Source: Sphyrna mokarran | Taxonomy: Eukaryota | Assembly: GCA_024679065.1 (NCBI GenBank) | Contig: JAGIQG010000013.1 | Coordinates: 48,236,001-48,300,000, forward strand | DNA length: 64,000 nt | Direction: 5' to 3' | In this document: positions 516-38,599 of the stretch, piece by piece | How the letters are laid out: each line of letters begins with the position of its first letter | How positions within the stretch are numbered: position 1 is the first letter of the stretch | The notes under the pieces: generated by a model | The model's database searches: none | The model's input: only the letters and a program-made list of their open reading frames with translations | What the model was told of the DNA's origin: nothing | Position numbers and translations under genes: made by a program

Positions 516-671
516 CATATACTGACATTGGTGGTAGTTTAGTTATTGAATCCAGTTTTTCCCAGGAATACGTTGCGCTGGGGATAGCTTCTTTGGAGCT
601 ACAAGTCAGTGTAACATCATTTCCAGTGTCAACAACTCCTTGAAGTTCACACAATGGAATAGTGGGTGGCA
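516..671 (-). CDS. IGSF11: IGSF11 internal coding exon (first half of the C2-type Ig domain), 156 bp, phase 1 to 1
   Basis: (V)PPTIPLCELQGVVDTGNDVTLTCSSKEAIPSATYSWEKLDSITKLPPMSVY, matching recalled human [48 protein letters not shown]. Acceptor cttttctttcag, donor ATG|GTAATG. Phase is compatible with the previous exon. Confidence 0.95.
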
Positions 672-1751
672 CTGAAAGAAAAGATTACAAAACATCAGCT
701 CTGAAAAGCACAGCTAGAGCATCATTAAAACACATCTCCCCCACAAATTAATGAGAGCACAGATGCAAGCAGGCCACATATCGCCTGGGGAAATGCTTAT
801 ATTTATTGCCTCATCATTTTGGTAGGAAAAGCCACAAAGCTCCTGCGTGACCATTCAACTCAACAAATGATCAAAGTTACACATTTTTTGCACAGTTGTC
901 AAGTACTCCCATTACATCTGGTCTGACATTAGCGACAATACTCAGCACCCCAATTTTTGTACTTTTGCATAATGACAAAGTTCTGTTTGGGTACAATTCA
1001 TATTTATCAGAACATTCACCAATTCACAGCAGATTGTGCACTCAGTCAGCTCGTCACTTTGATCTGTGCTTTGACTCAATTTTTAGGATCATTCACAGCA
1101 TTATTTTATATTAAATTCTCAAATTAGAAAGATCACAAATGCTCACAGATCTAATCATGGCTGAAACATTATTCTGCAATAATGCTGCGCCCTTCAATGA
1201 GATGATTGAGTAGGGATCTCATAGCGGGTCGATGGTAATAACTAGTACAGAAAGGATAAATTCAGAATGTTACATTAAGTATAACTATGGCAGAAATCTA
1301 GTCCCAATGTGGCAGAGAGAACTGAGTCGGTTGAGGCACAGAAGTGTACATTGCCAATTGGTGAGAGAGTTTGCCAGCACCATTCTGCCCCCAGATCATT
1401 TTCCTGGAGGCTGGATTCGGGCAGAACCCATCTGCAAAGCGCACGTGAGCAACTGAGATGATTGAAAAGTTCAGAGAGAGGCTGACTGGAAAATTCCAGT
1501 GGGCCCGCAGGTCCTCCACAGCATTGGGGTGGCCTCCCAGTGGCAGAGAAATGTTGGGAGGAGGCAAGCAACGTTCCAGGCTGACTTTGAACTCCTTCCT
1601 TTCCTCCCTCTCATTCCCCCTCTACAATGGTAGTCTGACAGCTGTGGCTTCACAACGCACAGTCCATTCTCTCTCTCTGTCCCTTAGCTACAAGAACGGG
1701 ATGTACTTCATTCCAATGCAGAGGTTTATTGACCCTGTGGTTTTGAAAGCC

Positions 1752-1936
1752 ATGATGTGGAGATGCCGGTGTTGGACTGGGGTAAAACAGAAAGAAATCC
1801 CATAATACCAGCTTAACGTCCAACAAATTTATTTGCAGTAAATGCCGCAAACTTTCAGAACAGGCTGTTCCATCATCAGGTGGCTAGGAGTTCTTGTTGG
1901 ACATTAAGCTGGTGTTGTGGGATTTCTTTCTGTTTT
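1752..1936. mobile_element. Non-autonomous hairpin Penelope-like (pLTR-derived) element with inverted arms and TSD
   Basis: 43-bp inverted arms at 1784-1826 and 1894-1936 (3 mismatches). A leader ATGTGGAGATGCCGGTGTTGGACTGGGG is shared with the element at 38223. A 12-bp direct repeat GTTTTGAAAGCC lies at 1740-1751 and 1932-1943. The spacer holds a hammerhead motif. Confidence 0.75.
1844..1884 (-). ncRNA. Minimal type I hammerhead ribozyme motif (Penelope-associated), core intact
   Basis: Minus strand reads GCCAC-CUGAUGA-U-GGAACA-gcc-UGUUCU-GAAA-GUUU-GCGGC. Both conserved boxes are present, stem II is 6 bp, stem I GCCAC/GCGGC has one mismatch, and helix III has no loop. Confidence 0.65.
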
Positions 1937-2429
1937 GAAAGCCTGACCACCCAATTTAATTGAATAGCAAGTATGTCTATTAGTCACTAGTTCAGACGTA
2001 AAGGCATCAGCTCAAAGATCCTGACACCATTTGGAGGTCTGACCCAGAATGGATAATCCTGCCCCATGGGCTGCATTTTATTGTGAGCGCAGCAATCCTG
2101 TTGTCAGGATGAATTCCAGTCAGGGACCCCAAATATTAAGTATGGGGCATCACGATGGAGCCATGCTATTAACTTTGGCACTCGCTAATATCCAGAATTA
2201 TCAGGATTCTTTTGCAGGGGAAGCAACTCTGCTTGAAAACATTTGCCCATGGATGTGCTGAATAATGCTAATATACTCATTTAAAAGGTAACTTTGCAGA
2301 TTTGTTTCATGAAACACTGTTCCCCTGCTGTGCTCTCGTCTCCGGTGACAAGGCAAGCCACCGACACAGCAGTGATCTGGTGTGCCTCAGACAAACTGGC
2401 ATTGCCCTCAGAAAAGGCCATTACAGAAT

Positions 2430-3310
2430 GCATTAAACACCTTTAATTGGCTTCCCCAAGTTGCCAGGCAGGTTGCCGTCTGCGCATACAGCACGGCTCT
2501 GGGGAAGCGATCCGAAACAAGGAGGTGATTGTGCAGTTGGGAAATGCACTTCAAGATTTTACAGGCCTCCTCTTTCCAAGGGGCCAAAAAAGCTCCCAAT
2601 GCCTTTTTAACAGCCCTCTCAATTTGTCCTGCCACCTTCAAAAGATTTGCATGCGTACACAGCCAGAATCACATCCTCTTTAGCTTACATTGCCTTCCTC
2701 GTTCTCCCTAGCAATATTATTTCACATCTCTCTGCATCGTAAGTCTGTACATTTCAATAGCCTTTGTTCCAAAGTCTCTTCATATCCTCTCCTATGTTGA
2801 CCATAGTTCCAACTTCTGTGCCATCTGAAATGTTTAAATAAAATTGTGTACATTGAAGTTTAGGTCATTAAGGCACATCAAATAGTTCAGTGGTCTGAAC
2901 ATCAATGCCTGGAAGACAGCACTGCACATCCCTAAAGCCTTAAAAACTGTTCACTCCTATTTGCTTTATGTCCCTTGGCCAATTCATATTCACACAGTTA
3001 TGCCTCACTAATTTGAATTTTGCTGACAAATCTATTGTGTGGTATTTTATTAGATAAATTTTGAAAGTCCATCAAGGCAACATCAGCTGCACAGCCACCA
3101 TCCATCCTCCCCATTATTTCATCAAATAATTCAATTCAAATTAATCAAACATGGTTTCTGCCATAATCTGGTTTTCAGTTATTAACCCTTATTTTGCCAA
3201 TTAATTCTGTCTTGGATTAGTGTCTGAACACCAATGTTAGGTTATCTGCTCTAAATTGTCAGGCTTACCATTCTCCCTTTTGGAACAATGCTGTAACATC
3301 TGTAATCCTT
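2430..3310 (-). mobile_element. Decayed CR1-type LINE ORF2 (RT) fragments
   Basis: Minus-strand translation includes 'KVAGQIERAVKKA' (CR1 KVxxQVDKVVKKA). Further degenerate RT-region similarity extends to about 3300. Confidence 0.5.
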
Positions 3311-14763: not shown

Positions 14764-14971
14764 CTAATACAGACAACCCAAGTATACCGATGTTCCTCTC
14801 TCCTCTGTCAGGCAGATTGTTCACCAAACACTGGTATGTCCCCGTGTCTGACCGTTGTGTGTTATTAATGAAGATGGAGGCACTTGTGCTGGGCATGGTA
14901 GTGACAAAACCCACTCGGGAATTAAATTGGGTGGCTCCACTAATTACCTGCCCTCCCTGGTACAAAATTAC
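14764..14971 (-). CDS. IGSF11: IGSF11 internal coding exon (second half of the V-set Ig domain), 208 bp, phase 0 to 1
   Basis: [69 protein letters not shown], including the DTGTYQC Ig motif. Acceptor ttttgtcacag, donor TAG|GTATAA. Joins in frame to the 24204-24367 exon (EQ|VILYQ). Confidence 0.96.
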
Positions 14972-31314: not shown

Positions 31315-31743
31315 CTACATAGCACAAAATTTACCATACTGAATTAGAAACAATATTTACTCAAATGAACACCACAGAGGTGCAAGTATCAACAATTCAA
31401 ATCTGTAATTACAGATTTATCATGAACCAACATTTTAATGTATAATCTCTGTTTGCTGCCAATAGGGAAATAATTAAAAACAACTGATAAAGAGTTGAAT
31501 GCCTTAAGCTCAGAACTTCTAGGCTAATTCTCTGCACTCTGAAATTCAAACCTCAGGGTAGATTTATATTACTTTCATTTCAGGTACATTTCTCTTGTAT
31601 CTGTCTTGCTAAGAATTGAGAAGTATTTCACCCAATTAAAATTATTTTTCAAATTAAAATCAAAAACCTTTTGCAAGTCATTGGCAATTTTAGGCCAACA
31701 AAAAGGCAAGAACTATCATTTCATTTGCTACCTTTCACAAGCT

Positions 31744-31827
31744 CAGTAAAAAAATCTCACAACACCAGGGTGAAGTCCAGATTTATTTGGAATCAAGTTT
31801 TCAGAGTGCTGCTCCTTCATCAGGTCA
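31744..31827 (-). mobile_element. Single arm of the hairpin Penelope-like family with hammerhead core
   Basis: Matches the 38256-38325 arm. Minus strand reads CUGAUGA-A-GGAG-cagca-CUCU-GAAA-ACUU (core at 31823-31817). Confidence 0.7.
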
Positions 31828-38222: not shown

Positions 38223-38441
38223 GAGATGGAGATGCTGGCATTCAACTGGGATGGGCACAGTAAGAAGTCTCACAACACCAGATTAAAGTCCAACAGATTT
38301 ATTTGGAACCATGAGCTTTCAGAGCCTGTGTGTTTGTGAAGTAAATTCCACTCATCCGATGAAGGAGCAGCGCTCTGAAAGCTCATGATTCCGAATAAAC
38401 CTGTTGGACTTTAACCTAGTGTTGAGAGGCTTCTTACTGTG
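38223..38441. mobile_element. Non-autonomous hairpin Penelope-like element with inverted arms and TSD
   Basis: 70-bp inverted arms at 38256-38325 and 38372-38441 (7 mismatches). Leader GATGGAGATGCTGGCATTCAACTGGG. Flanking direct repeat TGTGAAA(T/C)CAA at 38212-38222 and 38440-38450. AATAAA follows the ribozyme motif. Confidence 0.8.
38352..38388 (+). ncRNA. Minimal type I hammerhead ribozyme motif (U4C core substitution)
   Basis: UCAU-CCGAUGA-A-GGAGC-agc-GCUCU-GAAA-GCUC-AUGA: perfect 4-bp stem I (UCAU/AUGA), 5-bp stem II, palindromic AGCU helix III and a CUC cleavage triplet. Confidence 0.6.
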
Positions 38442-38599
38442 TGAAACCAATGTATTAATCCCATTCAAACAGTTATGGAGAGGGAAGAAAAACAAAAACT
38501 TGGAAACTAAACTGAAATGTGTTTTTATCTTGCTGGCGTGTAATTGATAAGATGGAAAGTGTACGATGAATCAAACATTTAATAGAATGACATAGGCCA

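Follow-up and report, generated by a model that had tools for sequence, protein, structure and literature searches.

A probable truncated Penelope-like insertion with a decayed minimal hammerhead motif in an intron of an Ig-domain gene of Sphyrna mokarran

Results

Architecture of the locus

The window analysed here, to which all coordinates refer unless a profile position is given, is a 64,000-nucleotide stretch of the Sphyrna mokarran genome (assembly GCA_024679065.1, contig JAGIQG010000013.1, positions 48,236,001 to 48,300,000). Close to its start lies an exon of an Ig-domain gene and, 1,080 nt from the acceptor of that exon, a 180-bp insert containing a hammerhead motif (Table 1). A sequence-only reading of this DNA had placed the element about 1.1 kb from the acceptor and in the sense orientation within the intron, and both statements are borne out, host gene and hammerhead being on the minus strand. 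Because of its position in the intron, the insert would be transcribed there. The host gene is putatively IGSF11, the name proposed for it; a PDB sequence search and the ESM Atlas returned nothing more specific than Ig, JAM-like or V-set. The search of sequencing runs yielded a single small-share run, X1, and no listed run recorded as RNA; an 888-nt contig of X1, whose status as RNA is a guess, is identical letter for letter to the window only over 516-673. Two further traces of other Penelope subfamilies lie deeper in the window: head-to-head pLTR ends with hammerhead-like remains on both strands (38223-38453), and a single decayed pLTR end with a CUGAUGA...GAAA motif on the minus strand, which is that of the host gene (31732-31825).

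Table 1. Features of the insert and of the flanking host gene (window coordinates)
Feature	Position	Strand	Basis or remark
Host exon, first half of Ig domain	516..671	-	Pfam Ig_3, E 3e-5; acceptor AG 673-672, donor GT 515-514
TSD, copy at the 3' end of the element, 12 bp	1740..1751		Direct-repeat comparison
One-sided 32-nt tail, ending at the first two letters of the parent start codon	1752..1783	-	Tail of this kind reported in PMC8557442 and PMC11167929
Forward piece of the pLTR (143 nt), spanning family 5'-end hot spot to ATG	1752..1894	-	Profile positions 291-433
Forward-piece stretch pairing with the inverted arm	1784..1826	-	Inverted-repeat comparison
Minimal type I hammerhead	1844..1884	-	Boxes 1879-1873 and 1856-1853; cleavage predicted at 1849/1848
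Hammerhead parts	Stem I 1884-1880 / 1848-1844; CUGAUGA 1879-1873; stem II 1871-1857; GAAAGUUU 1856-1849	-	
Inverted, 5'-truncated second copy, from the inner edge of the tail	1894..1936	+	Outer 5 nt in TSD
TSD, second copy	1932..1943		Direct-repeat comparison
Upstream host coding stretch, end of Ig V-set domain	14765..14971	-	Nearest upstream exon found; joint to 671 putative

The hairpin is exactly as had been claimed: its 43-nt arms are 93% complementary and enclose a 67-nt spacer, the 12-bp direct repeat lies where it was placed, and the motif on the minus strand reads as had been written out. The unit is smaller than the roughly 185 bp first given to it, the insert between the direct repeats (1752-1931) measuring 180 bp. 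The hairpin stands well clear of chance, with a best inverted-repeat score of 71, where 100 base shuffles of region 1000-3000 never exceeded 45, and a fold z of -8.4 that none of 200 shuffles matched. The insert has no ORF of its own and consists of two pieces of one element end—a 143-nt forward piece that comprises the minimal type I hammerhead and a 32-nt tail, and a short inverted copy. The arms begin inside the element end, which leaves the tail on one side only; the outer 5 nt of the inverted arm (1932-1936) double as TSD, and at the inner junction 2 nt (1894-1893) are common to both pieces. This layout, an inverted 5'-truncated copy and a one-sided tail of 30-40 bp, is published for Penelope elements (PMC8557442, PMC3846280).

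Family and parent element

The Penelope origin proposed for the insert is upheld by its relatives, since the same pLTR end both adjoins the ends of GIY-YIG ORFs and precedes the ORF ATG elsewhere in the genome. A search of the genome itself gave 2,807 first-look candidates, 40 of which were scored. Copy number was gauged with a 28-mer spanning the border of arm and tail, which has 208 exact matches (control, 0). The linkage check found the pLTR end behind the ORF C terminus in 24 of 24 loci, at 81-89% identity over 142-143 nt; these loci were chosen with the ORF end of one copy (L029) as query, and the count speaks for linkage, not for frequency. The pLTR end stands directly before the ATG in L029, L070-L073 and others, and L029 and L068-L092 show a pLTR on both sides of the ORF, after the stop and before the ATG. 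In L029 the order is pLTR, ATG, ORF start, internal deletion, ORF end, stop and pLTR. This internally deleted element (L029/L068, G000:C1:128.007-128.011 Mb) lies beside an inverted long ORF piece, and helix II is missing from its upstream pLTR.

No intact ORF of the exact subfamily of the insert was found among the copies examined; the intact frame belongs to a sister subfamily. There, L093 (L093:687-3365) has an uninterrupted frame of 893 aa with matches to RVT_1 (E 1e-9) and GIY-YIG (E 4e-4, 21.1 bits, just under the Pfam cut-off of 22.6), and its N terminus is 75% identical to that of L029. Upstream of the GIY-YIG motif L093 has a Cx4CxxC linker. A zinc finger–like Cx2-5CxxC linker between RT and EN is described as a mark of Neptune/Nematis (PMC8557442), and on this linker type the parent element is likely of the Neptune clade. 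The sister subfamily is young (L093, L035, L037-L041), most copies being 97-99% identical, and has other helix I and II sequences around the same core. One of its members (L040, G000:C1437:21403769-21407275) carries 116 sense-strand A-to-G changes relative to L093 in about 2 kb, the next class of change numbering 16; they begin about 500 nt into the ORF, 19 more lie in an upstream partial copy, and five sister copies have 3-21 in the same span. The pattern looks like RNA hyper-edited by ADAR before its reverse transcription and insertion.

Variation among copies

The insert had been read as a discrete, non-autonomous element of about 185 bp, a part of the reading that is not supported: lengths and junctions differ from copy to copy, and GIY-YIG ORF ends carry this element end as well. 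We sampled 98 of the first 100 listed matches to the 28-mer (208 in total), picked regardless of 5' structure, and dropped one (L157) as a duplicate of L156, which leaves 97; these two, 68 kb apart on G000:C772, share insertion structure and flanks in an apparent segmental duplication or assembly repeat. An inverted partial copy is present in nearly half of the sampled copies (47/97); in 14 the forward part reaches 285 nt or more, and 10 continue beyond the profile into the ORF. Repeats resembling TSDs, 11-16 bp long, flank 38 of the 97 (mismatched-flank controls, 5/300), and the inserts so bounded measure 61-626 bp. In 20 of the 24 TSD-bounded copies with an inversion, 33-43 nt separate the 3' end from the start of the inverted arm, and microhomology of the arm start with the target is mostly 1-7 nt (5 nt at the insert studied here). 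The 47 inverted copies show 47 different pairs of profile ends, the ends being approximate. One other copy, L002, has the inner junction of the 1752-1931 insert, at a 2-nt microhomology on the 5'-end hot spot described below. The hairpin is thus best seen as a by-product of one insertion event, given the variable lengths and junctions and the same end on GIY-YIG ORF ends. As for tandem ribozyme units, the locus has one motif, and its nearest relatives in the window are at 31.8 and 38.3 kb.

The hammerhead in the family and in this copy

The minimal type I hammerhead recognised in the insert is confirmed at the level of the family, by its boxes and by stem covariation. Across 139 copies of the subfamily and 58 others, the CUGANGA and GAAA boxes, U16.1 and H17 are the majority letters in all core columns, and so is the AGCU palindrome, while the stems change. 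In the 129 of 197 motifs that could be parsed (68 could not), pairing is 93% in helix II against 79% with shuffled partners, and 74% against 70% in helix I, neither value being reached in 500 shuffles, although these figures are inflated by relatedness among copies; on 19 haplotype representatives the corresponding counts are 0/500 for helix II and 29/500 for helix I. The second pair of helix I is an A-C mismatch in 51 of the 129 parsed motifs, and the 1752-1931 copy has the same mismatch. At profile position 338, on the 3' strand of helix I and opposite an A, 77 of the 139 copies have C, 37 T and 18 G, so that a mismatch beside the core must often have been present already in the source elements. 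Over 1200-2500 the Rfam covariance-model check matched no hammerhead family at E <= 10 and returned three unrelated weak matches.

The description of the core as intact stands for part of the motif: both boxes are complete in every letter, but the bulge and position 16.2 are mutated. The change of the bulged A to U at 1872 is found in this copy alone (1/139), and that of C to U at position 16.2 (1851), by which AGCU becomes AGUU, in 12 of 139 copies including this one. The copy has therefore lost both the 15.1-16.1 palindrome of the dimer and the bulged A of the family. The core is kept in 58 of 139 copies, and core, palindrome and bulge together in 49, a group to which the 1752-1931 copy does not belong. 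Its divergence is 10 of 125 non-CpG columns (family median, 5.7%). In the family at large, core columns decay by 3.6% and others by 4.8% (p 0.053), with no clear sign of selection on the core after insertion.

Fold prediction places the active fold at +6.6 kcal/mol in the context of the hairpin, with a stem I pairing probability of 0.001; for the motif by itself (1840-1890) the correct fold is predicted, with stem I at 0.77-1.0. Slow cleavage at 1849/1848 is conceivable, as the isolated motif is predicted to fold and the box letters are complete. A working ribozyme at the locus is nevertheless unlikely, because two family-conserved positions outside the boxes are mutated, there is no nearby partner on the same strand and the active fold is predicted to be disfavoured. 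A single min-HHR motif is reported not to have cleaved as a monomer (PMC4209133).

Where copies begin and end

Ends at the 5' side pile up just upstream of helix I, where 47 of 144 segments, forward and inverted pieces together, fall in profile 283-297. At base resolution, 21 of the 114 resolved 5' ends lie at profile 291-293, 44-46 nt upstream of the cut site. The hammerhead cut site itself was considered as the source of 5' ends in this subfamily and rejected, with 10 of 144 segments within 7 nt of it and 2 of 114 resolved ends at 335-339 (30 of the 144 segments do not resolve at base level, and a first rule had given 19 and 4 of 115 for the two base-level counts). The forward piece of the 1752-1931 copy starts on the hot spot, at profile 291 (window 1894); the extra G described next is absent from it, and its 5' end simply coincides with the hot spot.

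The letter that precedes hot-spot 5' ends is often G, also TG, where the parent has C. A first automated test of this was not significant (8/15 vs 23/62, p 0.38; second, p 0.10). Under a stricter breakpoint rule, tightened after the first test, G precedes 12 of 18 hot-spot ends and 14 of 55 internal breaks (p 0.004), and TG 9 of 18 and 4 of 55, respectively. A genome-wide pattern from which C was excluded had 45 matches (G 25, A 10, T 10), sorted by eye into 11 parental-like point variants and 34 breakpoints; removal of two counted previously left 32 new breakpoints, of which 21 have G (p 1.5e-6 against 0.25) and 13 TG. At an internal control position about 8 of 79 matches were breakpoints, 4 of them with G (p 0.43); point variants swamped this control, and its breakpoints are too few for a comparison. 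What stands before the AG of the hot spot in the genome-wide pattern is only G or TG, with no common first-exon sequence. A splice donor for a first exon ending in TGAG was found nowhere within 1.5 kb in three of five long copies, and the matches in L048 and L067 are unreliably mapped.

At the other end, 24 of the 54 copies that end in AT (95 examined) continue with at least ATGAC-like ORF letters, and copies running into the ORF start imply that the template spanned the pLTR-ORF junction.

Discussion

Origin of the insert

Our preferred reading, to which we give a probability of about 0.85, is that 1752-1931 is one insertion, old and truncated, of an EN+ Penelope-like element, likely a Neptune, composed of a 143-nt hammerhead end repeat and a short inverted copy, likely inert and formed by a mechanism that we infer. 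Directly observed are the membership in the family, the linkage to an ORF, the TSD and the tail, the variability of the junctions, the hot spot and the decay of this copy. The insertion would have begun with the RT-endonuclease cutting both target strands in a staggered manner, about 12 nt apart. One target end would prime reverse transcription at the start codon, which is the end of the tail, and the other about 32-37 nt further upstream, through the 5-nt microhomology. The first cDNA would then run 143 nt to the 5' end of its RNA template, the second would halt at a length of about 38 nt, and both cDNAs would be joined by their ends, head to head at their common AG. The template is likely to have been a capped, uncleaved 5' leader, from a transcript that started in the pLTR and extended into the ORF. 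Today the ribozyme would be carried passively in the host pre-mRNA, most likely without cutting.

We lean slightly towards a more general proposal, that the abundant solo-hammerhead stubs of this subfamily are complete cDNAs of the capped 5' leader—from start codon through 143 nt to the cap, recorded as an extra G, often TG—and not random truncations. What points to a capped and uncleaved leader is the 5'-end pile-up, the rarity of ends at the cut site and the extra G. Extra G marks a copied cap in full-length LINE-1 insertions (PMC11702581), MMLV RT adds +CA(A) on capped RNA (PMC6885630), and the Penelope promoter is reported to sit in the pLTR (PMC2377424). By analogy, a Penelope RT may copy the cap in a similar way. 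No cap signature for Penelope elements was found in the literature searched, outside which lay much Repbase and subscription literature and supplements.

Alternative explanations

The alternative that deserves most attention, which we hold to be unlikely though not negligible, keeps the Penelope identity and derives the inverted arm from fold-back self-priming, on cDNA or on an antisense template, and has the pile-up reflect either the RT halting at the folded hammerhead or a 3' splice site, in place of a capped start. For antisense templates, self-priming has been proposed (PMC3846280), and palindromic junctions occur in L023, L114 and L152, but a fold-back of at least 4 nt is present at only 5 of 66 ends, and the inverted arm has a fixed start with microhomology to the target. 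As to the pile-up, the hot spot is a U-rich tract and CAG just 5' of helix I, it resembles the intron end described for Penelope of D. virilis (PMC4209133), and 39 of 144 ends are inside the ribozyme; against a splice site, the AG is preceded by G or TG alone and by no common first-exon sequence.

It is improbable, in our view, that the stub is a discrete non-autonomous mini-element of hairpin form, comparable to a SINE or retrozyme, with transcription as one unit and renewed mobilisation in trans by Penelope proteins. Many short copies do have TSDs and lack an ORF, their sharp common 5' end could be a promoter start within the stub, and trans-mobilisation via pLTRs has been reported (PMC3846280). 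The spread of insert lengths and of (approximate) end pairs nonetheless argues against a fixed unit, as do copies that extend into the ORF start and the absence of the tandem arrays described for retrozymes (10.64898/2026.07.22.740005). The inner junction that L002 shares with the insert would favour such a unit, but it coincides with 2 nt of microhomology at the hot spot and can recur. Least probable is co-option by the host, in which the ribozyme would cut the pre-mRNA or the 43-bp hairpin would affect splicing or editing of the Ig-domain gene. The sense orientation 1.08 kb from the acceptor, the intact boxes and the strong hairpin could be taken to suggest it; they are set against divergence at or above the family median, a mutated bulge and palindrome, exclusion from the 49 copies that keep core, bulge and palindrome, a predicted misfold and a downstream exon that appears cleanly bounded in X1.

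Comparison with known systems

As a truncated Penelope insertion, the insert has counterparts. EN+ Penelope insertions, as drawn in the scheme of PMC8557442 and exemplified by Pen2a_Av of Adineta vaga (PMC3846280), likewise have a direct pLTR with a tail, an adjacent inverted and shorter pLTR, a TSD and a head-to-head junction, whereas the insert at 1752-1931 has no ORF and is 180 bp in all; TSDs are 11-16 bp in this subfamily and 8-10 bp in the Adineta examples (PMC3846280). The hammerhead resembles the min-HHR that Cervera and de la Pena (2014, PMC4209133) describe in metazoan PLEs, with which the family shares a type I core, a long helix II and a short helix I, an unpaired base between A9 and 10.1, a G10.1 pair, a palindromic 15.1-16.1 and a predominance of dispersed single motifs. 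The 1752-1931 copy departs from that description in its mutated bulge and palindrome, and sharks are not named in the text consulted.

A further parallel is PAc, the Poseidon element of Anolis carolinensis (Frangieh et al. 2024, PMC11167929), in which reverse transcription is described as starting internally at two places that delimit the tail, with extension of both target strands and with unprocessed RNA as the template. Its two internal 3'-end sites bounding a tail and its template spanning the pLTR-ORF junction are features of our subfamily too, and neither system, as far as the text of PMC11167929 goes for PAc, gives any sign of ribozyme-cut RNA as template. PAc differs in clade, in an ORF that starts inside the ribozyme and in RT start sites about 111-118 nt into the ORF, whereas in the shark subfamily about 96 nt separate the cut site from the ATG, which lies at the end of the tail, and the linker is of the Neptune/Nematis type. 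Animal non-LTR retrozymes (10.64898/2026.07.22.740005) resemble the insert in being short, non-coding and pLTR-related with a type I hammerhead, but are defined there by tandem units each with a ribozyme, whereas the insert is a single unit accompanied by a partial copy in inverted orientation, with ends that vary. Finally, LINE-1 insertions, both 5'-inverted (twin-primed) and full-length, are described with the discrete TSD, the microhomology at second priming and the extra G at complete 5' ends that we see in this subfamily (PMC11702581). The second start of the subfamily is fixed, however, and its two cDNAs duplicate the same stretch, whereas those of LINE-1 partition the RNA.

Implications

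The locus itself is retrotransposon debris and, as a host regulator, needs no follow-up. The layout of the insert is already known for Penelope elements; its cap-like 5' end in the family is a modest mechanistic lead. How Penelope inverted ends form and what the hammerhead does are posed as open questions in PMC11167929 and PMC4209133. A 5' end that is fixed and bears a cap-like G, together with the near absence of cut-site ends and the run-on into the ORF, offers a testable in vivo counterpart to the uncut RNA template described in vitro. If the stubs are indeed cDNAs of the leader, they would map the start of transcription to the base, they would show that the inserted RNA had escaped cutting by the hammerhead, and they would offer one explanation for the commonness of dispersed single hammerheads in animal genomes.
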